DNA of 16,073 bases, taken from the IMG/VR virus record IMGVR_UViG_2923307698_000005; one strand, given 5' to 3'. The first letter of the stretch is position 1. Every line of letters begins with the position of its first letter. The stretch comes from a virus (lineage: Duplodnaviria; Heunggongvirae; Uroviricota; Caudoviricetes). Shown here one piece after another: positions 1 through 16,073 of this stretch. The notes under the pieces are model-generated. The model saw only the letters and a list, made by a program, of their open reading frames with translations. It was not told the DNA's origin and ran no database searches. The translations under genes and the position numbers were made by a program.

Positions 1-1461
1 ATGAAAAAATTACTGCGTCTTTTTTTCCCGCTCTCGCTGCGGGTACGTTTTCTGTTGGCAACGGCAGCGGTAGTACTGGTGCTTTCGCTTGCCTACGGAA
101 TGGTCGCGCTGATCGGTTATAGCGTCAGTTTCGATAAAACTACGTTTCGGCTGTTACGTGGCGAGAGCAATCTGTTCTATACCCTTGCGAAGTGGGAAAA
201 CAATAAGTTGCATGTCGAGTTACCCGAAAATATCGACAAGCAAAGCCCCACCATGACGCTAATTTATGATGAGAACGGGCAGCTTTTATGGGCGCAACGT
301 GACGTGCCCTGGCTGATGAAGATGATCCAGCCTGACTGGCTGAAATCGAATGGTTTTCATGAAATTGAAGCGGATGTTAACGATACCAGCCTCTTGCTGA
401 GTGGAGATCATTCGATACAGCAACAGTTGCAGGAAGTGCGGGAAGATGATGACGACGCGGAGATGACCCACTCGGTGGCGGTAAACGTCTACCCGGCAAC
501 ATCGCGGATGCCAAAATTAACCATTGTGGTGGTGGATACCATTCCGGTGGAGCTAAAAAGTTCCTATATGGTCTGGAGCTGGTTTATCTATGTGCTCTCA
601 GCCAATCTGCTGTTAGTGATCCCGCTGCTGTGGGTCGCCGCCTGGTGGAGTTTACGCCCCATCGAAGCCCTGGCAAAAGAAGTCCGCGAACTGGAAGAAC
701 ATAACCGCGAATTGCTCAATCCAGCCACAACGCGAGAACTGACCAGTCTGGTACGAAACCTGAACCGATTGTTAAAAAGTGAACGCGAACGTTACGACAA
801 ATACCGTACGACGCTCACCGACCTGACCCATAGTCTGAAAACGCCACTGGCGGTGCTGCAAAGTACGCTGCGTTCTCTGCGTAGTGAAAAGATGAGCGTC
901 AGTGATGCTGAGCCGGTAATGCTGGAGCAAATCAGCCGCATTTCACAGCAAATTGGCTACTACCTGCATCGTGCCAGTATGCGCGGCGGGACATTGCTCA
1001 GCCGCGAGCTGCATCCGGTCGCCCCACTGCTGGACAATCTCACCTCAGCGCTGAACAAAGTGTATCAACGCAAAGGGGTCAATATCTCTCTCGATATTTC
1101 GCCAGAGATCAGCTTTGTCGGTGAGCAGAACGATTTTGTCGAGGTGATGGGCAACGTGCTGGATAATGCCTGTAAATATTGCCTCGAGTTTGTCGAAATT
1201 TCTGCAAGGCAAACCGACGAGCATCTCTATATTGTGGTCGAGGATGATGGCCCCGGTATTCCATTAAGCAAGCGAGAGGTCATTTTCGACCGTGGTCAAC
1301 GGGTTGATACTTTACGCCCTGGGCAAGGTGTAGGGCTGGCGGTAGCCCGCGAAATCACCGAGCAATATGAGGGTAAAATCGTCGCCGGAGAGAGCATGCT
1401 GGGCGGTGCGCGGATGGAGGTGATTTTTGGTCGCCAGCATTCTGCGCCGAAAGATGAATAA
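1..1461 (+). CDS. phoQ: Sensor histidine kinase PhoQ, complete (486 aa)
   Basis: Full-length ORF starting at ATG at position 1. The translation has an N-terminal transmembrane segment, a periplasmic sensor region with an acidic patch (EDDDDAEM), a second transmembrane segment, a HAMP-like linker, the phospho-acceptor His box ([10 protein letters not shown]) and ATPase motifs ([20 protein letters not shown]). Recognised from memory as enterobacterial PhoQ; not checked by search. Confidence 0.95.
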
Positions 1462-1580
1462 ATATGTCCTTTTATCACCATATCAAGACAAGCCATTGAT
1501 TTAATTAAATAATCTTCACTGAAAAAAGTGCCAAAAATCGCAAATTGACTACACCATTAACTACACCGTTCGGTGCACCG

Positions 1581-1610
1581 TATGAAACAACGTGGAACAA
1601 ATAGACACAA
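1581..1610 (+). repeat. Site A: three 10-bp-phased direct repeats with an AACAA core (tatgAAACAA cgtgGAACAA atagACACAA)
   Basis: Read directly. Shares the 15-mer AACAACGTGGAACAA with site B (9049-9063). Confidence 0.4.
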
Positions 1611-1943: not shown

Positions 1944-2197
1944 CCCCATTAACCACAGGCGAATTTCCGCCTTCGGTCATTCCTTAATCATCTGCGTAAT
2001 CATAATGATTATTCAGCAAGCGCAATTTTGCGCTTTGCTTAAAGTTCAGCGAGTTACCGCGCCGACTTCCTCAAATTGAGGTTTCCGAAAATATCAGCGG
2101 GTTAGCGATTAAGCTGACCATTAATTAAACTGCGAAAATGTCGTAGTTGTGAGGGGTGTAGCCAACCTATTTTTGGGCCGTCGGGAATATCAACCAG

Positions 2198-2479
2198 TTA
2201 CCGCCGCAACCGCTCCGGCTTCTTCCAGTGGTACGTTATTTTCTCCTTCTCCCGATACATCTCCACGCGGCGACGGTAGGCCAGCAACTCAAGAACTCTG
2301 GTTCGTATGTTGCGCATATCCACGCCATTAAGTTCTATACCATCACGGCGCATCACCTCAGCAACAACACGCGCATAGTTTTCGGCTGTCACGCTGTCCG
2401 GCTGCGTGGCCTGTTCGTCAGCCTGCTGGCTGATTCCGGCAACGCGGCGGATTAATCCCGTTATTTCGGCTTCTGTCAT
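2198..2479 (-). CDS. Hypothetical protein (93 aa), last gene of the packaging operon
   Basis: ATG start at 2479 with GAGG upstream; lies 14 bp downstream of the terL stop on the same strand. Basic C-terminus (HWKKPERLRR). No family recognised. Confidence 0.5.
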   Translation of the reverse strand: MTEAEITGLIRRVAGISQQADEQATQPDSVTAENYARVVAEVMRRDGIELNGVDMRNIRTRVLELLAYRRRVEMYREKEKITYHWKKPERLRR

Positions 2480-2492
2480 GCTGCTGACCTCA

Positions 2493-4154
2493 TTACACCC
2501 CGCTAAATTCTTCCAGTTTCTGGCGGTGGCTGTCGCTTATATCAAAAGCAAAATCCTCATGCTCTGCCTGGAATGTACCAAACGCCATCAGCGCCGCCAC
2601 GCTCGGGTCTATCTTGTTCGGTGATTTTTTCTTGTTCGGCTTGATATTGGCGTTCGCGTCACTCTGCATCACGACGTTACTCATCGACCAGGACAACACC
2701 GGATCGCCACGATGCACAATCACCCTGCGGTTAACAAAAACTTCGAACGATTTCGCCGCCGGACTGAATCTGAGGTAGGTTTGCGGGAACGGCTCCACCT
2801 CAAAACCTGCCCCCTGTAATTGCGTTCTGAGATGCGTGGCGTTCCACGTATCAAAGCCCACCAGCCTGATATTAAATTTCTCCGCGTCCTGCATGATGTC
2901 ATCTCTGATCCGGTCGTAATCAATGCAGTCGCCAGGCGTTGTGCGTATCCAGCCTGCTTTAGCCCACTGACGATAGATGGCGCGGTTTTTATTGGCGGGG
3001 TTCTGTAGCTGAAATTCCGGCAGATAGTGACGGGAAACCAGCATAATGGTTTTACCGACCGGAAAGGCATAGCACACGCTGGAAATATCGCTGGTTGATG
3101 ATAAGTCCAGCCCCGCGTAACACTCCTGGCCGTGTAAATCTTCCTCCGTGAACGTTCCGGCACACTCAGCCCATGCGCCGTTACCCATCCACGGGGTAGC
3201 CCCCTGGCACCAGATATTAAATCGCTTTGTCATCATCTCCACCCACTGCGACGGAATACCCCGCGCTTTCTGGATGGTTGAGGCCAGTTTTTCACGATCG
3301 ACGGAAACATCAATATTAGGGTTCGCCTTTATCCACATCGCCGGATCATCAACCTCGTTTTCGTCGTCCAGTTCGTAAATCAGTACAAAAATTGAATCGT
3401 TAACCTCTTCGCCGTCCAGGATCTGGCAGCAATAATCATAGTGCTGCTTACAGGCTGAAACGACGTTGCTGCCTGATGTGGTAATGGCAAATAACAGCCC
3501 TTCGGGACGTGCGCCCATCCCCAGCTCAAGCGCGGAATAAACGCCGTTATCGGGGTGCAAGTGGTATTCGTCCACGATGGAAAGGCTGGGGTTTGTTCCC
3601 TCGATGGTTGCCGCTTTTGCTGCCAGCGGCTTTAACAGGCTGTTGCTTTTCGGGTGTATCACCTTATGCGCCTGAATATTCACCCGCCTGCGTAACGGTC
3701 GGGATAAAAGGCACATCTGACGCGCATCATCAAAGACGATCCGCGCCTGGTCACGGCTCACCGCTGCGGTGTAGATATCCTGCTGACCGTTCTCCATAAT
3801 CAGAAACCAGTTAGCCAGAATCGCGGCGGTCGTTGATTTCGCATTTTTGCGCGGCACTTCGATAAAGGCGCTCGTATATTTGCGCCGTCCGGTGGCCTTA
3901 ACCTTAAAGCCGAGGATGCACGCAAAGGCGAACTGCTGCCACGGCTCCAGCTCAATGGGTCTGCCACGCATCGGCCCTTTTACGTGCGGGCACACCCTGG
4001 AAAAGGCAATAAACCGATCCACAACCTCACGATCGAACGTGTAAAGGGGGCTTTTAAGGTCCGAAAAGTACCGTTTAACGGCCTGTTTCAGCCGTTTACA
4101 GGCCGGAATTTTGCCCGTTTTTACGTCTTCTGCGTACTTATTCCAGGCGGTCAA
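2493..4154 (-). CDS. Terminase large subunit (553 aa)
   Basis: Translation has an ATPase P-loop-like motif (VPRKNAKST), a Walker B-like SIVDEYH, and a C-terminal nuclease-like region, as in HK97-type TerL. The only in-frame start that keeps the conserved N-terminus is TTG at 4154 with AGGA six nt upstream; it overlaps the terS 3' end by 17 nt. Confidence 0.9.
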   Translation of the reverse strand: MTAWNKYAEDVKTGKIPACKRLKQAVKRYFSDLKSPLYTFDREVVDRFIAFSRVCPHVKGPMRGRPIELEPWQQFAFACILGFKVKATGRRKYTSAFIEVPRKNAKSTTAAILANWFLIMENGQQDIYTAAVSRDQARIVFDDARQMCLLSRPLRRRVNIQAHKVIHPKSNSLLKPLAAKAATIEGTNPSLSIVDEYHLHPDNGVYSALELGMGARPEGLLFAITTSGSNVVSACKQHYDYCCQILDGEEVNDSIFVLIYELDDENEVDDPAMWIKANPNIDVSVDREKLASTIQKARGIPSQWVEMMTKRFNIWCQGATPWMGNGAWAECAGTFTEEDLHGQECYAGLDLSSTSDISSVCYAFPVGKTIMLVSRHYLPEFQLQNPANKNRAIYRQWAKAGWIRTTPGDCIDYDRIRDDIMQDAEKFNIRLVGFDTWNATHLRTQLQGAGFEVEPFPQTYLRFSPAAKSFEVFVNRRVIVHRGDPVLSWSMSNVVMQSDANANIKPNKKKSPNKIDPSVAALMAFGTFQAEHEDFAFDISDSHRQKLEEFSGV

Positions 4155-4494
4155 GCTCGTCCTCTTCTTCTGTTTCCGGTGGATTTTTACGGCGGCTTAT
4201 CGGGTCAAAACCGAGCAAGGAGGCCATTTTTATCATCACTCTTTCCGCGTCGGATTTCGCGCTTAATGCGGGGTTTCTGCTCTCTCCGCCCTGACTGTTA
4301 ACAATGCTGAACCCGCGCGCCGCAAGGTCTGCGACGGCTTTCCGGTATATCGAGTAATTGACGCAATACAGTTCCAGATTGCTCCAGTCGGCGGGAGTCA
4401 GGTCACCCCGTTCCGCAAGCTGCCGCGATTTTTCCCGCCACTGCTTCACGGCGATATCATCCAGGTAGGCGGGGGCTTTCGGTGGTCTTGCCAT
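4138..4494 (-). CDS. Terminase small subunit, P27-like (118 aa)
   Basis: ATG at 4494. Sits directly upstream of and overlapping terL. Translation resembles the P27-family small terminase (DLTPADWSNLELYCVNYSIY) with an acidic C-terminal tail. Confidence 0.8.
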   Translation of the reverse strand: MARPPKAPAYLDDIAVKQWREKSRQLAERGDLTPADWSNLELYCVNYSIYRKAVADLAARGFSIVNSQGGESRNPALSAKSDAERVMIKMASLLGFDPISRRKNPPETEEEDELDRLE

Positions 4495-4539
4495 GCTTAT
4501 TTTTTCGCCAGATTATTTTTCAAAAAATTCCCGTGCATA

Positions 4540-4610
4540 AAAATTTGAGGAGGCGGTCGGTGCCCGGCGGGGTCGGGTTTGTCCTGAAAACGCCCCCCAC
4601 CCCGTCATAC
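4540..4610. other. Candidate cos (cohesive-end) packaging site: GC-rich tract between the HNH gene and terS
   Basis: GGAGGCGGTCGGTGCCCGGCGGGGTCGGGTTTGTCC...CGCCCCCCACCCCGTC, 50-110 bp upstream of the terS start. The HNH-cos-terS arrangement is typical of HK97-like cos phages. Positional inference only. Confidence 0.3.
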
Positions 4611-4783
4611 AGCCTCATCAGCGATTGCGGAAACATTCCATAACCTCGCGGTCACGGTCGGTTAATCGCTTCGCTGTGATGCGTTCTGCGCATCCTGACG
4701 CTTTATCTTTATGCCCTGTTTCCTGTGTCTTCCATGCGTCACGCTGCCTTATAAGTCCACGGATAAGGCGGTTTTGTTCCCGC

Positions 4784-5224
4784 TCATTCATCAGCGTCAT
4801 ACATCCAGTTATTGCGGTTAGCGGCCCGTTCTTCCTCTTCACGAAATCCACCTGCGGCACGCTTACTTTTTGTTGCCGGATCAAGCCATTTCGTTTTCTG
4901 GTTATGGCACGCCTGACACAATGGTTGATGGTTCCATTCGGGCCAGAAGAGAACATCATCACCGCCATTAATCGGGATAATGTGATCCACCACCACGGCG
5001 GGCGTATATATCCCCTTCTCAAGGCATCGCACGCATAACGGGTTTTTACTCAGATACATGGCGCGGTATTTGTCCCACTGTCTGGAGTACCCACGCGCGC
5101 GGCGGTGTCCTCGTCTGGCATCCTCTGCACGCCATGCCGCCCGCCTGTGCTCCTCACACTTGCCGGACTTCACGCGCCTGTTACAGCCTGGTTCTGTGCA
5201 TCGTCTTAATGGTTGCCACGGCAT
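4784..5224 (-). CDS. HNH endonuclease, terminase-associated type (146 aa)
   Basis: Cysteine and histidine zinc-finger-like HNH motifs (CVRCLEKG, VDHIIP, NHQPLCQACHNQKT). Lies between the head-tail connector and terS. Confidence 0.85.
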   Translation of the reverse strand: MPWQPLRRCTEPGCNRRVKSGKCEEHRRAAWRAEDARRGHRRARGYSRQWDKYRAMYLSKNPLCVRCLEKGIYTPAVVVDHIIPINGGDDVLFWPEWNHQPLCQACHNQKTKWLDPATKSKRAAGGFREEEERAANRNNWMYDADE

Positions 5225-5520
5225 CAGTACACCCCCACATCACGGTAAGCCGTCCAGAGTGCACCAATCGTCATGGGTACGCGTGTTTTTGCGTTATCCG
5301 CGACAATCTGGCGATTTTCATACAGGTGAGCGATAAACATCATGCAGCCAATCTTTATGGCTGGCGTGAACTCCAGCCCGTCATCAAAGCGCCTGCCTAT
5401 GTGTATCTGGCACGCCTCAAGCGATGCGGCAATGTATCCGCTGATTAACTGGTCTTCCTCGTCGCCATCGATGCGGCAATGGAGTTTCACTTCTTCCAGG
5501 GTGATAAGTTCTTCTGTCAT
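5224..5520 (-). CDS. Head-tail connector protein, gp6-like (98 aa)
   Basis: Size, position after the head closure gene, and translation consistent with the gp6-like connector family. Its ATG overlaps the upstream stop (ATGA). Confidence 0.65.
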   Translation of the reverse strand: MTEELITLEEVKLHCRIDGDEEDQLISGYIAASLEACQIHIGRRFDDGLEFTPAIKIGCMMFIAHLYENRQIVADNAKTRVPMTIGALWTAYRDVGVY

Positions 5521-5855
5521 TTTTCCGCGCCCTCACGACAAAGAATTTCAAGGCGTGTCCTGGCGGCATCCGGCAGCGGCTGCCCGATGATATTCAGTAC
5601 ACGCCCCGCCAGCGGCCCCGTATTGACCTTTATCCGGCTGGTGGCGTTGATGTCCTTCCTGTAGCGTATCCATACCCTTACCGTTCCAGTCGCCAGTTCT
5701 GCACCCGATGAAATGGCCTCCTTGCTGCTGATCATGTTCACGCTTGCCCAGAGTGTGTGACCGTCCACCCACGTTTCGAGTATTTCGCCCGTCATGGCTC
5801 TGGTCTGTTTCAGGGTCTGAATCGTTACCCTGTCACGCAGTCGCCCTATGTTCAT
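5517..5855 (-). CDS. Head closure / head-tail joining protein (112 aa from the ATG at 5855)
   Basis: Translation MNIGRLRDRVTIQ...VRVWIRYRKDI resembles the phage head-tail joining family. The track ORF starts at 5897, but the ATG at 5855 forms an ATGA overlap with the portal stop and has GAGGGA upstream, so 5855 is preferred. Confidence 0.65.
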   Translation of the reverse strand: MNIGRLRDRVTIQTLKQTRAMTGEILETWVDGHTLWASVNMISSKEAISSGAELATGTVRVWIRYRKDINATSRIKVNTGPLAGRVLNIIGQPLPDAARTRLEILCREGAEK

Positions 5856-7063
5856 TCCGGTTTTTCTCCCTCGCTGATTTTTACTTCCTGTTTCCATGCC
5901 TGGCTGAACTCATCACCACCATCACGCGGTGACAGTCCTTCACGTTCGCGGGCTTCGTTCGGACACATAACGCCGGATTTGATGCCGCGCTCATAGGTGG
6001 CAAAGCGTTCGCCAGGTGTGGCCCGTAACAGGTCCGCGCTGTCAAACTCCACCTGATACCGGATACCAGGTACAGGCGAGGCCACCAGCAGGGCGTTTTT
6101 TATCTGCTGCTCAAAGTTCGCCAGCCACGGGCGCATCGTCATGGTGAGAAATGCGCGGCTTGCCTCGCTGAAATTGCTGTAGGTGCTGTTGCTGTATTCC
6201 TGCAAAAAAATCGGCGAGACGTTGAACATTCTGGCGATGTCTTCAATGGTGAAGCGACGGGAGGCCAGCCATTCAGCATCCTGATTACTCATGCCCAGCT
6301 GCTGATAGCTCATACCCCCTTCAAGGATGGGCGTTTTTCCGGCGTTTCTGGCCCCTTTGTAGCGTTCCAGTGCGGCTAATGCCTGTTTGCCCTTCACGCC
6401 GTCCAGCCATTCGCCTGACGTGATAACCCCTGCCGCCATCATGCCATCACGCATCACGCTCGCGCCGTGGCGTTGTTGGGCCAGCCCAAGCCCCAGCGAT
6501 TCGCGGCAGATGGTTACAGGTGAGCGCCCCATAAAACCGTCATCCGTGGAGTAACGAAGGTGGAGAACCTCCCACGGTAAATAGTTGCGGGTGTTTCCGG
6601 TGTAGGCGTCAGTGATGCAGTAGCGCCAGTTATGCTCACCTGTCTGCTCAACGTTCACCGACTGCGGCGGGTAAGGATGCAAAGCGACCGGAAAACCATC
6701 ACGCCCCCACTGAATCACCGCATAAGCATTACCGTTTAACAGGCAGTGGCGGATCATCATTCGCTTAAACTGGTAGGGGGTTTGCCATGCGTTCGGGCGC
6801 TCGTTGAGGATGTGATCGACCGGATGAGAATCAAGCCACTCGCGGGCCTCCTTCCCCTTCTCATTGCGTACCAGGTACAGGTAACACGGCATGGTAGCCA
6901 CCGCCTCAGAGATGACCGTCACGGCGTTCATGACGGCGGGCAGTGATTCCGCTGTCCCCGATGATACGTACTCACCCGCCCCCGTGTTCGATGTGCCAGC
7001 CAGCGCCATAAACTCATCAAGCGTCATGCTGCGCTGCTCTTTTTTTCTTCTGAAAGGCCACAT
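5852..7063 (-). CDS. Portal protein, HK97 family (403 aa)
   Basis: Size, position and translation consistent with HK97-type portals. ATG at 7063 with GGGGG upstream. Confidence 0.85.
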   Translation of the reverse strand: MWPFRRKKEQRSMTLDEFMALAGTSNTGAGEYVSSGTAESLPAVMNAVTVISEAVATMPCYLYLVRNEKGKEAREWLDSHPVDHILNERPNAWQTPYQFKRMMIRHCLLNGNAYAVIQWGRDGFPVALHPYPPQSVNVEQTGEHNWRYCITDAYTGNTRNYLPWEVLHLRYSTDDGFMGRSPVTICRESLGLGLAQQRHGASVMRDGMMAAGVITSGEWLDGVKGKQALAALERYKGARNAGKTPILEGGMSYQQLGMSNQDAEWLASRRFTIEDIARMFNVSPIFLQEYSNSTYSNFSEASRAFLTMTMRPWLANFEQQIKNALLVASPVPGIRYQVEFDSADLLRATPGERFATYERGIKSGVMCPNEAREREGLSPRDGGDEFSQAWKQEVKISEGEKPE

Positions 7064-7064
7064 A

Positions 7065-7637
7065 TCACACCCCCGCTAAATCCGCCCACCAGCGGCGATT
7101 ATCCGCACGCGGCATTTTTTCGGGGTGCTGCTCATACAGGGAACGGCGGGCCAGCTCCACGTCGGAATCAGGGTAAGCCGGTACGGATGTAACGGTAATT
7201 TCGTACAGTTCCGCCACCAGCACGGTGCGCACGCATGGATCTGTTGTGGTATCCCATACATCCTTACGGGAACGAAAGCCAAAGCTCATGCCGGATATAT
7301 CACCTCGTTTAACCAGTTCGATAACGTCGCGCCCTGTACTGGTATCCGGTGGGGTCAGTTCAAAGCGTAACCCTGTTTCGTCCTCTTCCAGTTTCAGCGT
7401 GCCGGAACGGGTGCGCCCCAGTAACATGCTGTGGTCATGCTCATACAGGCCGCGAACGTCATTACCCGCCGCAAGCCATTCAGTAAACGCCCCCCGCTGG
7501 AATTTTTCGTAAAACTCACCCCATAACAGTTCTGAAAGCTTATCCCAGCGAACAATGTAGCCCGTCAGCGTACCGGCTCCGCTGGTGGTGATTTCCGATG
7601 ACCGGATTTCCATACTCTTCATAATTTTTTCACCCAT
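7065..7637 (-). CDS. Prohead maturation protease, HK97 family (190 aa)
   Basis: Lies between the capsid and portal genes; translation consistent with HK97 prohead protease. Start is ambiguous between ATGs at 7637, 7622 and 7613. Confidence 0.8.
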   Translation of the reverse strand: MGEKIMKSMEIRSSEITTSGAGTLTGYIVRWDKLSELLWGEFYEKFQRGAFTEWLAAGNDVRGLYEHDHSMLLGRTRSGTLKLEEDETGLRFELTPPDTSTGRDVIELVKRGDISGMSFGFRSRKDVWDTTTDPCVRTVLVAELYEITVTSVPAYPDSDVELARRSLYEQHPEKMPRADNRRWWADLAGV

Positions 7638-7646
7638 AAAACACTA

Positions 7647-7666
7647 AAGGGGCTTTTAAGCCCCTT
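7647..7666 (-). promoter_or_regulatory. Intergenic stem-loop between the capsid and protease genes (AAGGGGCTT/AAGCCCCTT)
   Basis: Perfect inverted repeat in the 39-bp gap after the capsid stop, followed on the minus strand by UUAGUGUUUU. Consistent with a partial terminator or mRNA-stabilising hairpin that raises capsid expression relative to downstream genes. Confidence 0.35.
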
Positions 7667-7676
7667 CTGTATGCTA

Positions 7677-8834
7677 TTAATCGTCGTCCTGTGGCAGTTC
7701 CAGAATCTTGATCGCGTTCGAATCCACCACGCCACCGCCTAAATATTTCTGCGCGAAAATTTTGATGAAGCCCGGCTCTGTGAGGTTGTCCGGTCTGGTG
7801 CGAACACCTGTTTCGTGATCAACAATGTAGTAACCGCGTTTGAAGTCACCCAGGGCAATAACGTTATCCGGCATAAACTCCAGATATTCGACCGGAAGGC
7901 CCAGCAACGTATCAGGATCACCCGCCTGTAAACGGTCACGCCAGATGTAATCACCGTTCGCGTTCTTCACCTTCTGGAGTTTTGCCGCCGTCGTGGAGTT
8001 AACCACCCAGACCGCGTTTTTGCGGTATTTTTTACGTAATGCAAATTTCAGGTCGATCAGCGGGTCCGCAGATGTCCACGCCAGAGATTCGGAAGGTTTA
8101 ATTACCTGCAACGTACCAAAATCACGCTCTTTGTCGTTCTTCTCTGCACGGGGTACGGATAGAAAGCCTTTTGCTTTTTTGTCACCGTCGCCCACAACCA
8201 GATCGCTTTCTTCGGTTTCCGTGAAGGTGTCGCCAATCTCGCCCGTCAGCCATGAAAGGATGTCCACATCGGAAAAATCCACGATTTCCTGCGTGGTGCG
8301 CGGGTACGCATAGACCGGATACAGCTTAATGCTCACCTCGTTAATCTGCGGGGTGCTGGTCTGTTCGCGTGCCTTACCCTCTTCACCGTGGTTAACGGTC
8401 GCACCGCCAGCGGAAACAAGCTGCTTAAACTCGTTGCTGCTGATTTTCTTCACGGTACAGATGCGGCGCATGGTGGATTCATCCGTCAGCATTCGCATGA
8501 TTTCGGTGTTCAGTTCGGGGATAACGGTATAACCACCATCAGCGGGAACGCCTGTACTTAATGCGCGGGTTTCACCTGTCAGAATGTAGTGACGTAGTTC
8601 GGCGGGGTCAGTGGTCTGGCTGTTTTTGCCTGGTTTACTGCGCTCTTCGTCAGCAACGGCCTCAAGGCGGGAGATGTCTTTATCGAGGGATTCAGCTTTA
8701 GCGCGTAATTCGTCAAATTTTGCGCCCTCAGCATCGTTAAGGCTGCGGTTTTCTTTTTCCGCGTTCTCCAGCATGTCGCGCATCTGATTTTTAATGGCGG
8801 TTTTCTGCTGGCGTAATTCGATTATTCTCGGCAT
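7677..8834 (-). CDS. Major capsid protein, HK97 fold, with N-terminal delta (scaffold) domain (385 aa from the ATG at 8834)
   Basis: N-terminal coiled-coil-like region (IIELRQQKTAIKNQMRDMLENAEKENRSLNDAEGAKFDELRAKAESLDKDISRLEAV) followed by a capsid body. The track ORF extends to a GTG at 8882 with no ribosome-binding site; the ATG at 8834 has AGGA upstream. Confidence 0.85.
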   Translation of the reverse strand: MPRIIELRQQKTAIKNQMRDMLENAEKENRSLNDAEGAKFDELRAKAESLDKDISRLEAVADEERSKPGKNSQTTDPAELRHYILTGETRALSTGVPADGGYTVIPELNTEIMRMLTDESTMRRICTVKKISSNEFKQLVSAGGATVNHGEEGKAREQTSTPQINEVSIKLYPVYAYPRTTQEIVDFSDVDILSWLTGEIGDTFTETEESDLVVGDGDKKAKGFLSVPRAEKNDKERDFGTLQVIKPSESLAWTSADPLIDLKFALRKKYRKNAVWVVNSTTAAKLQKVKNANGDYIWRDRLQAGDPDTLLGLPVEYLEFMPDNVIALGDFKRGYYIVDHETGVRTRPDNLTEPGFIKIFAQKYLGGGVVDSNAIKILELPQDDD

Positions 8835-9044
8835 AAAAAAAGTCCTGAAGTTAAGTAAGGAACTCCAGGACGCGGCAAACACTCAACCGTTTTTCATAAG
8901 GAAATCAGCAATCGCACCGATCGTTTTCCCGCCTGGTAATGAATATTGGCGGGCACATTAACAGGCGGGAAAGTGGCCCCAGCGTCCTGGCACCACGGGC
9001 GAGAATAATCATGATTCAGTTCGGGTAAAATATGCCGATCCGGT

Positions 9045-9080
9045 CAGCGAACAACGTGGAACAACCACGAACAAATAATT
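9045..9080 (+). repeat. Site B: 10-bp-phased GAACAA direct repeats (gcGAACAAC gtgGAACAAC cacGAACAAA) upstream of the capsid operon
   Basis: Read directly. Lies just downstream (minus sense) of the terminator at 9090-9116 and about 200 bp upstream of the capsid start. A candidate promoter (TTGTTC, 16 nt, TATTTT on the minus strand) sits next to it. Confidence 0.4.
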
Positions 9081-9089
9081 TACAAAACA

Positions 9090-9116
9090 TGACAAAAAGC
9101 CGGATTGCTCCGGCTG
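9090..9116 (-). terminator. Rho-independent terminator ending the replication/early operon
   Basis: 7-bp stem AGCCGGA/TCCGGCT with loop TTGC, followed on the minus strand by UUUUUGUCAUGUUUUG. Starts 6 bp after the PerC-like stop. Confidence 0.55.
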
Positions 9117-9121
9117 TGTGA

Positions 9122-9394
9122 TTATCTGTCCTGGTAATTTCGCCATATTTCATCACCAGCACCATCCATACCCATTTCGGCATAAGTGCGATCGACCGCC
9201 TTTTTCAGGTCTCCGTAATTATCCGGCGGCTCCGGTGGCCTCTGTGCCTTCCTGGAACATTCCAGCCGTCGCATCGTGATGTGATGCCGTTCCTTGTCTG
9301 TCTCCACCAGTTGCATGACTTCACCCCATCGCGCCGACGCTCTCCGGTAAAAGCCTTTCGCCTCCAGTTCTTCCGCTATGCGGTCATGTACCAT
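9122..9394 (-). CDS. PerC-family transcriptional regulator-like protein (90 aa from the ATG at 9394)
   Basis: Translation MVHDRIAEELEAKGFYRRASARWGEVM...TDKER...RR..CSR matches my recollection of the PerC/Pch signature. The track start at 9403 is a GTG; the ATG at 9394 is preferred. Confidence 0.55.
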   Translation of the reverse strand: MVHDRIAEELEAKGFYRRASARWGEVMQLVETDKERHHITMRRLECSRKAQRPPEPPDNYGDLKKAVDRTYAEMGMDGAGDEIWRNYQDR

Positions 9395-9406
9395 CGTCCC
9401 CACCCC

Positions 9407-9817
9407 TCAGAACGGAATATCATCACCGTAAGGGTCATCGCCTCCCGCTGGTGGCTGATTACCCTGTGTGCCTGTGGTCTTGCGTCGGCTCCCACCAGGA
9501 CGTGCCGCACGGGCACTGATTACGCTGTCTGCAATAACCTGATAACCCTGCCGCGTTTCCCCGTTCTGTCCGGTCCACTGGCTGACCTGCATCGTGCCGG
9601 ATACGCTGGCAACGTCGCCTTTTTGATGTTTAGCCAGGAAGTCGGCCTGCTTACCAAATGCGATGACCGATAGCCATAACGTCGCCTGTCCATCCTGTGC
9701 CTGGCTGCATGGCAGCGATACCGCCATACGCGCCAGCGTCATCGGTGTACCCTTGCTGGTCTGTTTTACCTGCGGGTCGTCCACCAGCCGCCAGTAAGCT
9801 GCAATTTGTGCTGTCAT
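9407..9817 (-). CDS. Single-stranded DNA-binding protein (136 aa)
   Basis: OB-fold-like core (WLSVIAFGKQADFLAKHQKGDVASVSGTMQVSQWTGQNGETRQGYQV), a glycine/proline/glutamine-rich linker, and a C-terminal DDIPF tail as in bacterial SSB. GAGGTGG ribosome-binding site. Confidence 0.75.
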   Translation of the reverse strand: MTAQIAAYWRLVDDPQVKQTSKGTPMTLARMAVSLPCSQAQDGQATLWLSVIAFGKQADFLAKHQKGDVASVSGTMQVSQWTGQNGETRQGYQVIADSVISARAARPGGSRRKTTGTQGNQPPAGGDDPYGDDIPF

Positions 9818-10384: not shown

Positions 10385-10585
10385 CGCAACCTCTCACTTT
10401 TTCGCCTCACTTTTTCAAGCGTCTCACTTCGTCGCAGTTGGGATTTTTGGTTTTTCTATGTGTGTGTTTCATAAGTATTTTTTTACCCCTCACTTTTGAG
10501 GATGTATACAGGTCGAAAAGTGAGGGGGAGCGGGCTAATTTTGGCCCTCTTTCTATCCCCCTCGCTTTTGCTCCTCACTTTTATA
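10385..10585. repeat. Iteron-type replication origin: seven copies of CTCACTTTT (one inverted, one CTCGCTTTT variant) flanking an AT-rich spacer
   Basis: Copies at 10393-10401, 10406-10415, 10423-10430, 10489-10497, 10517-10525 (inverted), 10561-10569 (variant) and 10574-10582. The AT-rich core is 10441-10485. Lies immediately 3' of the replication ATPase gene. Confidence 0.6.
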
Positions 10586-11981
10586 GCGGCGCTACATCAT
10601 CCCCATCGATACGAATAACCCCATCTTTTTCCAGCTTGTACAGCCAGCGCCGGAAGTTTTTCATTTCATACCCCAGCTTTTTCATGTCATCACGTAACAT
10701 CTGGATCGTGCACTTGTCGCCGTTCTGTGTGCGTGAACGGATGCACCCCCATAGCGCGGTATGGTTTTCCGTCTTGTTCCCTGCCTCCTCGATGCGCTCC
10801 AGTTCAACAGGAGGGCGCGGATCATCCACCACCACCAGCGACGTGATTAATTCACCGTCAGCGTCGGTAAAAAGCTCCACCACGCGTAAGTCATATGCGG
10901 CTTCTTTGAGTTCCTCCGCGTCCTTCATTTTGGTGCATGAGATAACCAGCGCTTCGCTTCCTGCGTCCTCCCTGCGTATCCGGTATTCAGCATCCAGCGA
11001 AGCACGAAATGCACTGGAACCGCGCGCGCCTTTCGTCTCATCCTTGCCGGAATGGTGAACCACCAGCACCGTGGCCCCTGTGCGTCGTTTCAGTTCGTCA
11101 CAACCACGGATAAACGCCCCCATATCACGGGAATCATTTTCATCATTCCCACCAAAGCAACGCGCCAGCGTATCCAGAATAATCATGCGTACAGGTTTAC
11201 CCGTTTCCCGCTCCACCTGACGGGCAGCGATAACCATTTCATCAACATCAAGCGGGGCAGCCGGAAAGATGGGGCGGTTTACCAGATACAGATTTTTCAC
11301 CTGCTCATCGTGCACAACCTCCCAGGCTTTTACACGACGCGGAACACCTATACCGCCTTCACCAACCACATAGAGAACCGCACCATGTGCAACCCTGCGG
11401 CCTCCCCACTGGCGACCAGTGGCAACATGGCACGCCCACGATCCGGCAAGGAATGATTTATAGGACCCGCTAGCCCCGTATATGCTGCATAGCGATACCG
11501 CCGGAATAATCCCCTTAACCACGTAATCCAGTTGCGTGTCGTATCCGGTAGATCCAACGCTCATCGGTAGCGTGGTTTTTCGCTGGTGGTTTTTTTCTTC
11601 CGCCGGCTCTTTCCCGCGCACCCGTTCCAGGTATTCGCGCCAGTTCTCCCGCATATGGCTGTGCATCCCTTCGGGGTAATAATTCGCATCAGTTACACCC
11701 GCCGCCGCCAGCTTGTGCGCAATGGCATTAATATTTGATGGCCTGATGTGGCCTGCCTTGTACAGCCGGACACAATAGCGCCCCTCGTCGATGATTCTCA
11801 GGTCTGCCAGTTCATCCAGTTGATCATCAGCCAGCACAACGGGAGGCACATTATCGCCAGCCAGTCGCCCGTCCTGTTCCTGCCACTGTTTCGCATGTGC
11901 CCAGGCATCACTACCCGCAAAAATAATGACTTCGGTCATCTTGTCGTAAGGCTGTTTTTTTAAGTTCGGTGCGCTTTTCAT
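10581..11981 (-). CDS. Replication protein: RecA-fold (RepA/DnaB-like) ATPase, probable helicase or primase-helicase of the satellite (466 aa)
   Basis: Walker A GASGSYKS and Walker B-like MIILDT in a RecA-like core. Sits between the accessory ORFs and the iteron origin, as the pri-rep gene does in PICI and P4-like elements. Confidence 0.75.
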   Translation of the reverse strand: MKSAPNLKKQPYDKMTEVIIFAGSDAWAHAKQWQEQDGRLAGDNVPPVVLADDQLDELADLRIIDEGRYCVRLYKAGHIRPSNINAIAHKLAAAGVTDANYYPEGMHSHMRENWREYLERVRGKEPAEEKNHQRKTTLPMSVGSTGYDTQLDYVVKGIIPAVSLCSIYGASGSYKSFLAGSWACHVATGRQWGGRRVAHGAVLYVVGEGGIGVPRRVKAWEVVHDEQVKNLYLVNRPIFPAAPLDVDEMVIAARQVERETGKPVRMIILDTLARCFGGNDENDSRDMGAFIRGCDELKRRTGATVLVVHHSGKDETKGARGSSAFRASLDAEYRIRREDAGSEALVISCTKMKDAEELKEAAYDLRVVELFTDADGELITSLVVVDDPRPPVELERIEEAGNKTENHTALWGCIRSRTQNGDKCTIQMLRDDMKKLGYEMKNFRRWLYKLEKDGVIRIDGDDVAPL

Positions 11982-13365: not shown

Positions 13366-13445
13366 AACGGCTCCTAGTTTACGTTGTTGGTTAGAAGCCC
13401 CGTTACTGCTCCTACAGTGCGGGGCTTTGCTTTTTGTGTTGATTG

Positions 13446-13491
13446 TGTGTAATGTGTCATTACACATAAATACATTACATGAGGTGTAATT
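13446..13491. promoter_or_regulatory. Paired operator-like inverted repeats in the divergent control region: TGTGTAATG-TGT-CATTACACA (13446-13466) and CATTACA-N5-GTGTAAT (13473-13491)
   Basis: Read directly. Four copies of the TGTAATG/CATTACA half-site between the minus-strand early operon and the plus-strand Arc-like gene, overlapping the Arc-like gene's ribosome-binding site. Confidence 0.45.
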
Positions 13492-13494
13492 AAC

Positions 13495-13674
13495 GTGTCA
13501 ATACACAAAAACGAAAGGCGTGGTAATCCTCCGTTCCAGTTCCGTTTAGATCCTGACTTACGGGAAAAGATGGAAAAGGCACAACAACAGGACGGCGATG
13601 ATTCTCTTGCTGCCTGGATAAAGCGAATAATCCGCAAAGAATTACAGCAACGCGGCATAGAACCCAAAGGATAA
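13495..13674 (+). CDS. Arc-family ribbon-helix-helix DNA-binding protein (59 aa, GTG start)
   Basis: Not in the ORF track (under 60 aa). GTG at 13495 with GAGG ten nt upstream. Translation VSIHKNERRGNPPFQFRLDPDLREKMEKAQQQDGDDSLAAWIKRIIRKELQQRGIEPKG matches the Arc-type pattern: a PPxFxLRL beta-strand followed by two helices. Confidence 0.6.
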   Translation: MSIHKNERRGNPPFQFRLDPDLREKMEKAQQQDGDDSLAAWIKRIIRKELQQRGIEPKG

Positions 13675-13731
13675 AAACTATCAGCGCCGTGGTGTGAGGA
13701 ACTACGGCGCATTTCTTTACAGGAGTAGACA

Positions 13732-13917
13732 ATGAACAACGAAGAATTACGGGAAATCGCATTATCCATACTTGAAAGACAGGTAGAAAAAAAATTAAGA
13801 GAAATGGATGAAATGCCTGACCATGAACAGGAAGCAAGGCCAAAAAGATTTGCCCTTGAGGATTTTCTTAAAAATTGCCCAAGAAAGATGAGATCGTGGC
13901 GTTGTTGTCCGCCCTGA
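13732..13917 (+). CDS. Hypothetical small protein (61 aa), cotranscribed with the Arc-like gene
   Basis: ATG with AGGAG six nt upstream; charged, helical-looking translation; followed by an intrinsic terminator. Confidence 0.5.
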   Translation: MNNEELREIALSILERQVEKKLREMDEMPDHEQEARPKRFALEDFLKNCPRKMRSWRCCPP

Positions 13918-13994
13918 TGACAGATTTGCCAACCAGCCCAAAATGTGGCATCGTTGTCGATGCATAGTGTAATCAACATGTATATCATATTTTT

Positions 13995-14021
13995 GCGACC
14001 ATCATAGGTCGCATTTTTTTT
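13995..14021 (+). terminator. Rho-independent terminator of the plus-strand Arc-like operon
   Basis: Stem GCGACC/GGTCGC with loop ATCATA, followed by ATTTTTTTT. Confidence 0.6.
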
Positions 14022-14074
14022 GCCTGTAATCCGGCAATTGTGGCGCTTCTTCACACAGTTGATATAATTCCAAT

Positions 14075-14145
14075 GCTCATATTTATTTTTTGTGCAGCAG
14101 GTTAATCGTTCACAAAGGCGCTCAGGTAACTGGGCGCTTTTTGTT
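14075..14145 (+). ncRNA. Candidate small RNA, about 70 nt, with its own promoter and terminator
   Basis: Extended -10 promoter TGaTATAAT at 14060-14068, predicted start near 14075, and a strong intrinsic terminator at 14118-14145 (stem GCGCTCAG/CTGGGCGC with one G-U pair, loop GTAA, then TTTTTGTT). No plausible ORF inside. Confidence 0.3.
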
Positions 14146-14291
14146 ATGCCTGAAAAACCCCAATTTTGTTGTTTTTCAGTTTCACCAGGGCGAACGAATC
14201 CCCGCCCACGTTCTGGCGTATATTCAATCTTCATGGTTATAGCTCTGTGTTCAGATGATTGATGTGTGGCGGCTGTGTGCCGCCAGCGTGA

Positions 14292-14480
14292 TTAATGAAC
14301 TGCCTTGCAGCTATCCTTCCAGGCCAGAACCTCGGATAAAGACCAGCCAACGGAACGACCGCCAAGTTTACGACGTGATGGGAATTGTCCGGCCTTTTCC
14401 AGGCGGTAGCGACACGTACGGCTAAGGCCGGTTAGTTTTTTGCATTCTTTTTCACGTATAAACCGATCAGTGCTTAACAC
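14292..14480 (-). CDS. alpA: AlpA-family transcriptional regulator / excisionase-like protein (62 aa, GTG start)
   Basis: Translation LTGLSRTCRYRLEKAGQFPSRRKLGGRSVGWSLSEVLAW matches the AlpA/Xis-type helix-turn-helix pattern. The ORF has no internal ATG; the GTG at 14480 is preceded by AGGGGG. Lies immediately downstream of the integrase gene. Confidence 0.8.
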   Translation of the reverse strand: MLSTDRFIREKECKKLTGLSRTCRYRLEKAGQFPSRRKLGGRSVGWSLSEVLAWKDSCKAVH

Positions 14481-14750: not shown

Positions 14751-14800
14751 CTTGTTCGTAGTTGTTCCACATTGTTGCTCATTGTTGCACGTTGTATCTG
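14751..14800 (-). repeat. Site C: four to five 10-bp-phased (C/G)AACAA repeats on the minus strand (gtgCAACAAt gagCAACAAt gtgGAACAAc tacGAACAAg)
   Basis: Read directly. The minus-strand string GTGGAACAACtACGAACAA matches site B (GTGGAACAACcACGAACAA) at 18 of 19 positions. Lies 44-93 bp downstream of the integrase stop. Confidence 0.4.
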
Positions 14801-14843: not shown

Positions 14844-16073
14844 TTATTTTCTTCTGGCTACTGGTAGTGCGGTTACGTTTTCATGTGTTCCCGCCAGTAT
14901 CCCTAACCGCTCCATCCACATATCCAGCGCATTGCGTTTAGCATCCAGATAACGGGAATGATTATAAACTCGCTGCATTCCTGGCATCTGGTGGCCTGTA
15001 AGCTGCTCCACGACGTGAGGATCCACGCCTAAATCGTTCAGCATCGTTGTAAAGGTGCGCCGGATGTCATGTAGTGACCAGTGAGGGTGATTTAGCCTCC
15101 TGTGCGCTAATCTGCCGTACTGCGACACGCTTGTTTCCTGTTTCACTTCCCCCAGCAATAAGCCCGTGTGCCTGTTCTGCTCCACCAGCTGCGTGACGAA
15201 CGGCAGTATTGCTTCCGGTATGGGCCGGAATATGGCTACCTTCGTTTTGCTGTGCTCCTTCGGAACAGTCCAGAGCATTTCGGTAAAATCCCACTCGCCG
15301 ATCTCCGATAACCTAAGTTCGACCGTCCGGCATCCGAACACAATCAGGAGGCGGATTAGCGCGATGTAGTAGGGGGAGAATATTTTTTTGTCCAGTGCCT
15401 GCAATAATTCGCCAAGTTCTTTGTTGCTTAAGACACGCTCGCTTATATCCGGTTTTTTCCCAACGTCCGCCACACTCATATCATCAAGAACGTTGCTGAT
15501 TGCATAGCGCCGCTTCCGGCAGAACTTAAGCGCCTGCTTGCATGTCTGTAGCAGGAACCCGGCGGAAACAGGGGCTTGCTTTGCCACCCGATCAAAACAG
15601 GCCAGCCAGTGCCGTAGCTCGCATTTATCCAGCGGCATAGGGCCAATGTGCTGTATTACGTGATTATTTAGCCGCTTTTTCAGTGGGTCATAATCCACAC
15701 GGTTTTCCTTTGCGTACGACTCAAGCCAGTAGGTGAGCGCATCACCAACCGTTACCGGCTTTAACGCTTCCTGTACGGTGTAATTAAGCTCATGACGTGG
15801 ATTTTTCCCCTCTGCCAGCCATGCGCGACACTGGGCGGCTTTTTCCCTGGCTGATTTCAGGCTCAGATCAGGATAATTTCCCAGCTTAATGCGTTCCGGT
15901 GGTGCCCCCCTTCCCGTTCCGGCCCTGTAAGTGAAATACCAGGTTAAAAGGCCACTGGTTGAATGCCTGACGCTCAGGTTTCCACCGTCATTAAGAAAGG
16001 CTGTTTTTTGGGCGGGTGTGCCGTTGATTTTCCTCAGCTGTGTATCGCTCAGTTTGTTAAGTGCTCTGCTCAT
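14844..16073 (-). CDS. Tyrosine site-specific integrase, P4-like (409 aa)
   Basis: Catalytic-domain motifs near the C-terminus (HDIRRTF, GHQMPGMQRVYNHSRY) and an N-terminal DNA-binding region. The ATG is the reverse complement of the last three bases of the window. Confidence 0.93.
   Translation of the reverse strand: MSRALNKLSDTQLRKINGTPAQKTAFLNDGGNLSVRHSTSGLLTWYFTYRAGTGRGAPPERIKLGNYPDLSLKSAREKAAQCRAWLAEGKNPRHELNYTVQEALKPVTVGDALTYWLESYAKENRVDYDPLKKRLNNHVIQHIGPMPLDKCELRHWLACFDRVAKQAPVSAGFLLQTCKQALKFCRKRRYAISNVLDDMSVADVGKKPDISERVLSNKELGELLQALDKKIFSPYYIALIRLLIVFGCRTVELRLSEIGEWDFTEMLWTVPKEHSKTKVAIFRPIPEAILPFVTQLVEQNRHTGLLLGEVKQETSVSQYGRLAHRRLNHPHWSLHDIRRTFTTMLNDLGVDPHVVEQLTGHQMPGMQRVYNHSRYLDAKRNALDMWMERLGILAGTHENVTALPVARRK

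Follow-up and report, generated by a model that had tools for sequence, protein, structure and literature searches.

Phage-inducible chromosomal islands of the capsid-forming type (cf-PICIs) are satellites that make small heads for themselves and take nothing but tails from a helper phage, which enables them to cross species boundaries. Here we compare with them a 16,073-nt stretch of DNA (IMG/VR record IMGVR_UViG_2923307698_000005, analysed at its full length and hereafter called the window), whose minus strand carries a head and packaging operon that begins with the capsid gene. In proteobacterial cf-PICIs the order "capsid-protease-portal-head connectors ... hnh-terS-terL" has been described as conserved, and phylogenies of the capsid and large terminase (TerL) proteins, which took in 113 and 420 phage homologues, place cf-PICIs in clades apart from phages, with three independent origins (Alqurainy et al., 10.1101/2022.09.08.507074). 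EcCIEDL933, from E. coli O157:H7 EDL933, is the prototype (10.1101/2022.09.08.507074; He et al., 10.1101/2025.02.11.637232). Mutation of its packaging module abolished transfer for every gene except hypothetical gene 1792, where transfer was severely reduced; helper transfer was unaffected, and tails are supplied by the helper HK106 (10.1101/2022.09.08.507074). The small heads of EcCIEDL933 form without helper head genes, the helper tail genes alone being required, and it packages exclusively its own DNA; its T=4 capsid measures 47.5 nm and has been solved at 3.24 Å, and cf-PICI DNA has cohesive ends. Connector genes are highly divergent among cf-PICIs and have been linked to tail specificity (10.1101/2025.02.11.637232), and AlpA, a relative of the P4 excisionase Vis, is known to activate PICI genes as well as its own promoter. 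Both the gene order and the satellite lineage discussed below are therefore already known, having been published in 2022-2023 and extended in 2025 with the capsid structure.

Other satellites resemble these islands in part. The two clades of Firmicutes cf-PICIs follow the same strategy with the same gene content as the proteobacterial ones, but the operon of one clade begins with portal-protease-capsid and that of the other with hnh-terS-terL, from which the authors conclude an independent origin. EcCICFT073, a classical Gram-negative PICI, and the satellite P4 likewise have a P4-type integrase, an AlpA/Vis-type regulator and helper dependence, but they lack a capsid, portal or terminase set and instead redirect helper proteins (Rpp, Sid/Psu).

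Likeness of the window island to EcCIEDL933

With high confidence we assign the region to the packaging operon of a cf-PICI, a mosaic variant of EcCIEDL933 inserted next to phoQ. Window positions 2186-9120 match the EcCIEDL933 packaging module at 97.1% nucleotide identity, with proteins 95-100% identical, and the two islands also share the leader, the cos region, the TTGTT arrays, the gene order and the insertion site. In EDL933 the island lies between roxA and phoQ, and the window island occupies the same junction: phoQ takes up positions 1-1461 on the plus strand, identity to K-12 is 99.86% over positions 1-1469, homology stops at 1469, and all credible genes from about 1470 to the window end are on the minus strand. 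The island lies between phoQ at one end and the integrase at the other, the integrase start codon falling on the final base of the window (16073). For the capsid protein, PDB entry 9gyi (385 aa, "Major head protein") was hit with E = 2e-254, consistent with this being the capsid structure reported for EcCIEDL933, and HK97 gp5 was undetected at E <= 1e-3 in a PDB sequence search with the window capsid. After 9gyi, the next-closest solved capsids were those of the Rhodobacter capsulatus gene transfer agent (GTA; 6tb9/6tba, E = 4e-47).

The gene content agrees with how cf-PICIs have been delimited. All eight head and packaging genes of the cf-PICI set, assigned like the other genes from Pfam and PHROG profile scans, are intact with strong scores in both, and they follow the proteobacterial order of capsid-protease-portal-connectors and then hnh-terS-terL. 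The island further carries an integrase, a regulation module (alpA) and a replication module, and a scan of nearly all minus-strand open reading frames (ORFs) of at least 75 aa gave no match to tail or lysis families among the island ORFs; lysis genes and a full tail module are absent, and the coding capacity of the island is fully accounted for. At least 14.6 kb of it lies inside the window (from the junction at about 1470 to the integrase start at 16073), within the range of approximately 10-18 kb used for cf-PICIs (He et al. 2025, methods), and by analogy with EDL933, where attL lies about 180 nt past the integrase start, the full island would measure approximately 14.8 kb. The HNH gene lies directly upstream of cos and TerS/TerL, as in HNH-dependent cos packaging of the HK97 gp74 type. 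The locus does not have the form of a canonical HK97-like temperate phage, given that its order differs and tail genes are absent.

The resemblance to the prototype does not extend over the whole island. EcCIEDL933 has different alpA-proximal accessory genes and a 74-aa ORF between perC and the capsid gene that is missing in the window, and PerC and the last gene are only approximately 87% identical between the two. The RepA-type helicase of the window is 100% identical to that of a tqsA-integrated E. coli island (L001), and no complete E. coli genome of the collection exceeds approximately 97% over the entire island. Because the replication module differs and no whole-island match exceeds about 97%, we regard the element as a mosaic variant, that is, a new mosaic copy of a known and experimentally characterised satellite of the EcCIEDL933 type, and this is the corrected annotation that the window should carry. 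Several points weigh against a simple equation with the prototype: the window has an AAA_25 RepA-type helicase where EcCIEDL933 has a DUF927 primase, the window ends before the left att site is reached, which leaves completeness dependent on the EDL933 analogy, and the functional data are those of the prototype, the window element being known here from its sequence alone.

If the window island behaves as the prototype does, a helper phage would induce alpA, and the island would then excise and replicate, as has been shown for EcCIEDL933 and is predicted here from the 97% identity. Its capsid, protease, portal and two connectors would build small T=4 heads, its HNH-TerS-TerL machinery would cut and package island DNA at the cos region between HNH and TerS, and a helper siphophage would contribute only tails. 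Small capsids, packaging of its own DNA only and dependence on helper tails would thus be expected from proteins that are 95-100% identical to those of the prototype.

Gene order and lineage among satellites and phages

On the minus strand the genes run capsid, protease, portal, head closure protein (Hc1), head-tail adaptor (Ad1), HNH, a 57-aa ORF, a 123-nt gap, TerS, TerL and a 93-aa gene. Those from the protease to the 57-aa ORF abut or overlap, as do TerS and TerL, TerL and the last gene are 13 nt apart, and just two non-coding gaps of the block are sizeable, the 39-nt capsid/protease spacer and the 123-nt gap before TerS. A first-pass annotation of the window had read the order as capsid, protease, portal, connectors, HNH, cos, TerS, TerL, had taken it for a rearrangement of the HK97-like order, and had proposed that it may mark an independent assembly-gene lineage of satellites. 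The profile scans bear out this order and strand; the order recurs in 88/88 relatives and is therefore no accident of annotation. The range given for the module (4138-8834) holds the genes from capsid to TerS and leaves out TerL, which its title names and which lies at 2493-4154; the gene list omitted the 57-aa ORF and the 93-aa last gene, and the reversal of the connectors went unmentioned, Pfam showing Hc1 and then Ad1, the opposite of their order in phages.

HK97-like cos phages (HK97, the helper HK106, ST64B and YeP1) provide the reference for judging what has been rearranged. They have the same protein families, with HNH-cos-TerS-TerL contiguous over the genome junction, and, as in the window, a capsid with a delta domain, no separate scaffold gene and a GC hairpin after the capsid gene; they differ in having T=7 heads and tail and lysis genes, and in their capsid (at most 40% identity) and TerL (approximately 35%). 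Because HNH-cos-TerS-TerL is contiguous in a circular or concatemeric HK97-like genome, this segment is the normal circular junction and not a rearrangement, in agreement with the ends of the linear vB_KppS-Ant record, which starts 22 nt before TerS and ends just after a small ORF behind HNH. Only part of the supposed rearrangement is thus real, namely the displacement of the head block and the change of its internal order: (i) the head block lies upstream of HNH instead of downstream of TerL, or, put differently, int-rep stands in place of tail-lysis, with accessory genes and an att site after TerL; (ii) portal-protease-capsid has become capsid-protease-portal with the strand unchanged; and (iii) Ad1-Hc1 has become Hc1-Ad1. 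Simple inversions cannot yield this order of capsid-protease-portal and Hc1-Ad1, and the changes fit a long separate history.

Reference genomes, IMG/VR and annotated records together yielded 95 loci that encode a capsid homologue, and we treated the 88 with a capsid identity of at least 59% as relatives. All 88 fit the window order and none shows the phage order: 56 are complete, 17 have an Hc1 too divergent for detection, two are without both connectors, and the rest are truncated contigs together with one linear record (vB_KppS-Ant) that is permuted and begins at TerS. Their hosts span Enterobacterales, Pasteurella and Gilliamella and include E. coli, Shigella, Citrobacter, Erwinia and Rosenbergiella; over 80 loci, drawn from three bacterial orders, share the gene order and a size of 14-17 kb. 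Other proteobacterial cf-PICIs (KpCIDSM30104, EcCIGN02175, vB_KppS-Ant, Pmp7/Pmp8 and loci from Shigella to Rosenbergiella) are identical to the window in module order and carry the post-capsid hairpin, the conserved cos block and, in most, the leader motif; they differ in that their capsids are 59-75% identical to that of the window, their connectors are highly divergent, and many contain a terminator-like hairpin within the leader, along with other repeat arrays.

Across 50,697 phage records, capsid matches above 41% identity came solely from satellite-derived or anomalous entries, namely vB_KppS-Ant (16.5 kb), Pasteurella Pmp8 (15.3 kb), a Salmonella fragment of 3.8 kb and a Klebsiella record of 106 kb that is probably chimeric; a TerL search of the phage records additionally brought up Pmp7 (10.7 kb). 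The two satellite-sized records that we inspected (vB_KppS-Ant and Pmp8) show the window order with int and primase genes and without a tail module. True phages reach 29-40% identity to the window in the capsid and approximately 35% in TerL, and the nearest of them, ST64B and YeP1, are arranged TerS-TerL-portal-protease-capsid-Ad1-Hc1, followed by tail genes. The identity gap (at least 59% versus at most 40%), together with the published trees, supports the proposal of a satellite-specific assembly-gene lineage rather than recent capture from a helper, and the synteny comparison points the same way, since all 88 relatives share the order and the nearest true phages are canonical. Neither a conventional gene order at this locus nor a typical phage clade with the same synteny came out of these comparisons.

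These comparisons also bear on other ways of explaining the locus. That the head genes belong to HK97-type families, that RefSeq labels them simply as phage genes, and that one relative (L001) has an IS1 insertion inside the module would all suit the older "cryptic prophage" label, meaning a decaying HK97-like prophage that had lost its tail and lysis genes and had its order scrambled by decay. We consider this very improbable: every ORF of the module is intact, with tight coupling between them, its order and size are repeated across the loci of three bacterial orders, the island carries int, alpA and rep genes of the PICI type, and the 97%-identical prototype is experimentally functional, which refutes decay for the prototype itself. 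It is just as improbable, in our view, that the module was recently captured from a helper phage with the same unusual order, in which case the order would mark a phage lineage. A few "phage" records (vB_KppS-Ant, Pmp7/Pmp8 and the 106-kb Klebsiella record) do share that order, but the small ones are satellite-sized (10.7-16.5 kb), with int and primase and without a tail module, and the Klebsiella record may be chimeric; true phages stay at or below 40% in the capsid and near 35% in TerL, ST64B and YeP1 have the canonical order, the conserved leader occurs in no other phage record, and the published trees separate the clades.

A domesticated GTA-like head module serving the host would find support in the small heads and in the R. 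capsulatus GTA as the source of the nearest solved capsids after 9gyi. The island, by contrast, encodes an integrase, replication genes and a sequence-specific terminase and possesses a cos region, the prototype packages no DNA but its own, and related elements lie at different sites (tqsA in L001, phoQ here), as expected of a mobile element, all of which makes domestication exceedingly improbable.

The survey gave some incidental observations on public records. Among the GenBank "phage" records LR881103.1 (vB_KppS-Ant), OR544138/OR544139 and PQ569648.1, several are cf-PICI genomes of 10.7-16.5 kb. In LR881103.1 a 765-aa gene after TerL is annotated as a "tape measure protein" and is probably a misannotated accessory gene. 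In the 106-kb Klebsiella "phage" record a cf-PICI module occupies 90-103 kb, and the assembly may be chimeric. Two Bartonella contigs from metagenome-assembled genomes (L012 and L014) show a third order, portal-capsid-HNH-...-TerS-TerL, with a capsid homologue of 30% identity; the element may be a Bartonella GTA-like or satellite-like one.

Non-coding elements of the packaging operon

The non-coding region between the 57-aa ORF and TerS contains the blocks GGGGTGGGGG(A/G)GGTTTTCAGGAC and CCGCC(T/C)CCTCAAATTTTTAYGCAC..ATTTTTTGAAAATAA, whose conservation extends from E. coli as far as Pasteurella and Gilliamella, a span of hosts over which identity in the flanking proteins, HNH and TerS, drops to 53-74%. 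The linear vB_KppS-Ant record (LR881103) breaks inside the conserved block, and, together with the reported cohesive ends, these observations lend good support to the cos position proposed earlier, as a candidate region and not as a cut site. The ends of LR881103 were considered as exact cos termini and rejected, approximately 75 nt being missing relative to close relatives.

The short hairpin that the first-pass annotation had placed directly after the capsid gene is present and conserved. A GC hairpin with a T tract lies 4-16 nt after the capsid stop in 54 of 58 distinct relatives, with a stem core (GGGGC/GCCCC) that is nearly invariant and loops that vary freely (TTAAAA, TTCG, GGTG, TATAT, ACAGC and others), and some stems are altered on both sides, to GGAGGC/GCCTCC or to the longer GGGCGTTCCTG/CAGGAGCGCTC. 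Its sequence suggests a partial terminator or a 3' stabiliser, and either would be predicted to lift capsid mRNA over protease, portal and terminase mRNA. We considered the hairpin as an adaptation to the new gene order and rejected this, since ST64B, YeP1 and a Rhodovulum locus have one as well; because these canonical-order relatives carry it too, the hairpin travels with the capsid gene and is inherited. In phages it parts the head genes from the neck and tail genes, whereas here all genes but the capsid gene sit behind it.

The claim of a capsid-led operon behind its own terminator and control region also holds: a terminator-like hairpin ends the perC-like gene and is followed by a leader of approximately 260 nt. 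We compared this leader with those of relatives, 81 distinct leaders in all. The motif TTTTGTAAATTAT (at most 2 mismatches) was found in 60/81, nearly always 215-258 nt upstream of the capsid ATG and in five cases at approximately 120 nt. A promoter-like element, TTTAC[ACT]-N16-TAnnnT (N18 in one leader), occurs in 34 of the 81, and a hairpin of the form GTGG..GACG..CCAC, mostly GTGGCACTCAGACGTGAGCCGCCAC, in 54; wherever both were detected, the promoter-like element lies exactly 33 nt before the GACG hairpin, and the window-type version of this hairpin differs in its inner stem yet still pairs. The candidate promoter would give a transcript start at about 8995, not at about 9040 as had been proposed for the operon. 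Folding of positions 8825-9125 gave z = -5.1 relative to shuffles. The hairpin immediately 5' of the capsid ATG, whose 3' arm holds the sole Shine-Dalgarno-like AGGA before this codon, is found in close relatives, whereas a different hairpin takes this position in other subfamilies; the window hairpin could be a terminator, an attenuator or a translational gate at the first gene of the operon. Rfam gave no match, neither for the full window (gathering thresholds) nor for the leader (permissive E-values), no match to the conserved leader was found in any other phage record, and a full-text literature search returned no relevant paper on the conserved leader sequences.

Phased TTGTT repeats link the leader with other parts of the island. 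The pattern TTGTT-N5-TTGTT has six matches in the window against 0.08 expected, and these fall in the capsid leader, the int-alpA spacer (14752-14786, plus strand) and the attR arm (1586-1600, minus strand). In 50 kb around the EDL933 island, 6/6 matches lie inside the island, at positions 30240 (attL arm), 31626-31650 (int-alpA spacer), 37883-37907 (capsid leader) and 45478 (attR arm) of that locus, and close relatives repeat the four-site pattern. Proteins of the Xis/Vis/Cox type bind phased direct repeats, and by analogy AlpA would be the likely binder of the TTGTT arrays; the distribution of the arrays suggests one Vis/Xis-like binder, possibly AlpA, that would tie excision to late gene expression. 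We also applied a crude covariation test of the leader array against a second island copy, in which only EcCIEDL933-type islands beat the shuffles (22-23/30 versus at most 20). Because the covariation is confined to these islands, the idea of a regulon is supported for that subfamily only. In vB_KppS-Ant a TTCAT array lies upstream of a regulator gene, and a strict match is absent from its leader.

Taken together, these elements allow a tentative proposal, which we consider possible but doubtful as a whole. In it, the TTTTGTAAATTAT box, the 10-bp-phased array, the weak promoter and the GACG-loop hairpin would form a shared late-control cassette, one Vis/Xis-like protein, probably AlpA, would in EcCIEDL933-type islands link capsid production with excision and with the expression of the protein itself, and the capsid-first placement would make the inherited 3' hairpin a stoichiometry switch for the whole head module. 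The cf-PICI reading itself includes, as predictions from the sequence, that transcription would begin near 8995 at a weak, activator-dependent promoter that lies behind a terminator and beside a phased TTGTTC array also present in both att arms and upstream of alpA, and that the post-capsid hairpin would let capsid mRNA exceed that of every downstream gene, an excess that would suit approximately 240 capsid copies per head versus 12 portal subunits. Such an arrangement could explain the timing and the balance of head production. The post-capsid hairpin, the leader cassette, the TTGTT arrays and the cos details, as putative regulatory features, are the only parts of this account for which we found no prior description in the papers searched.

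A number of observations count against these regulatory predictions. The candidate promoter matches 8/12 consensus positions and falls below the threshold of a generic sigma-70 scan, which found no minus-strand promoter in the leader, so that positional conservation is its sole basis. The T tract of the post-capsid hairpin is interrupted (TTTAGTGTTTT), and the canonical-order ST64B and YeP1 and the Rhodovulum genomic locus also have a GC hairpin directly after the capsid gene. The link between AlpA and TTGTT is an analogy with Xis/Vis/Cox-type proteins only, and in the covariation test distant subfamilies did not rise above shuffled controls.

Feature coordinates and neighbouring genes

Table 1. 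Features of the phoQ-side island, listed from the integrase to the attachment junction (window coordinates).
Feature	Coordinates	Strand	Evidence and remarks
Tyrosine integrase, P4-type arm-binding domain	14844-16073	-	PF13356 + PF00589; 97% identity to EcCIEDL933 integrase
alpA (PICI activator / Vis-like excisionase family)	14292-14480	-	PF05930 6e-17; phrog_2790
AAA_25 RepA-type helicase	10581-11981	-	Pfam/PHROG scans
SSB	9407-9817	-	Pfam/PHROG scans
PerC-family activator gene	9122-9403	-	PF06069, 3e-43; directly upstream of capsid operon
Terminator-like hairpin AGCCGGA-GCAA-TCCGGCT + TTTTTGT	9098-9115	-	ends perC-like gene; kept in L001 and L004
Conserved motif TTTTGTAAATTAT	9075-9087	-	head of packaging-operon control region
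Three TTGTTC repeats, exact 10-bp spacing	9049-9074	-	capsid leader; candidate binding array
Candidate weak sigma-70 promoter	9002-9029	-	-35 TTTACC 9024-9029, 16-nt spacer, -10 TATTCT 9002-9007
Leader hairpin GTGGTGCCAG-GACG-CTGGGGCCAC	8973-8996	-	conserved, GACG loop
11-bp perfect inverted repeat TTTCCCGCCTG-N26-CAGGCGGGAAA	8925-8972	-	in leader
Hairpin followed by seven T	8842-8871	-	just 5' of capsid ATG; ends 8 nt before ATG
Major capsid protein (385 aa; HK97 fold, delta domain at N terminus)	7677-8834	-	PF05065 1e-61; 98.7% to EcCIEDL933
GC-rich hairpin AAGGGGCTTAAAAGCCCCTT, then T-rich tail TAGTGTTTT	7647-7666	-	in 39-nt capsid/protease spacer
Prohead serine protease (S78)	7065-7637	-	PF04586 2.5e-48; 96.8% to EcCIEDL933
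Portal	5852-7063	-	PF04860 9e-91; 99.5% to EcCIEDL933
Head closure Hc1	5517-5897	-	PF05521, phrog_25; 95.2% to EcCIEDL933
Head-tail adaptor Ad1 (gp6-like)	5224-5520	-	PF05135, phrog_40; 100% to EcCIEDL933
HNH endonuclease of packaging machinery	4784-5224	-	PF01844, phrog_144; 99.3% to EcCIEDL933
Conserved 57-aa ORF	4618-4791	-	phrog_3173 5e-36; overlaps HNH stop, ends just before cos
Non-coding packaging (cos) region GGGGTGGGGGGCGTTTTCAGGAC ... CCGCCTCCTCAAATTTTTATGCACGGGAATTTTTTGAAAAATAA	4495-4617	-	123 nt between 57-aa ORF and TerS
TerS, P27 family	4138-4494	-	PF05119 1e-23; 100% to EcCIEDL933
TerL	2493-4154	-	PF03354 + PF20441; 98.6% to EcCIEDL933
Conserved 93-aa gene closing operon, function unknown	2198-2479	-	phrog_1561 3e-56; follows TerL in EDL933, L001 and L004
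Right attachment junction	1459-1472	.	core about AAATATG(T/C)CC; 8 nt beyond phoQ stop; EcCIEDL933 at same junction

Some gene starts in Table 1 allow alternatives. The capsid gene likely starts at the ATG at 8834, though its ORF reaches a GTG at 8882, the protease may start at an ATG at 7622, and Hc1 likely starts at 5855, the RefSeq annotation of this gene in EDL933 being a 112-aa form. The cf-PICI papers name Hc1 the "head-tail adaptor" and Ad1 the "head-tail connector". The 57-aa ORF has the C-terminal motif RDRExxECFRNR and is annotated as hypothetical in EDL933, L001 and vB_KppS-Ant (L002); it is retained in enterobacterial relatives and absent in Pasteurella and Gilliamella, and it might correspond to hypothetical gene 1792, the mutation of which lowered EcCIEDL933 transfer.

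A repeat search of the junction region (1462-2200) showed nothing notable. PICI-encoded homologues of PerC, whose gene lies directly upstream of the capsid operon, reportedly have the LEE pathogenicity island as a target (PMC6092414, PMC11773190). Several small genes of unknown function separate alpA from the RepA-type helicase, and the 286-aa ORF that follows alpA (13374-14234), which has no family match, is in keeping with the variable region that He et al. describe.

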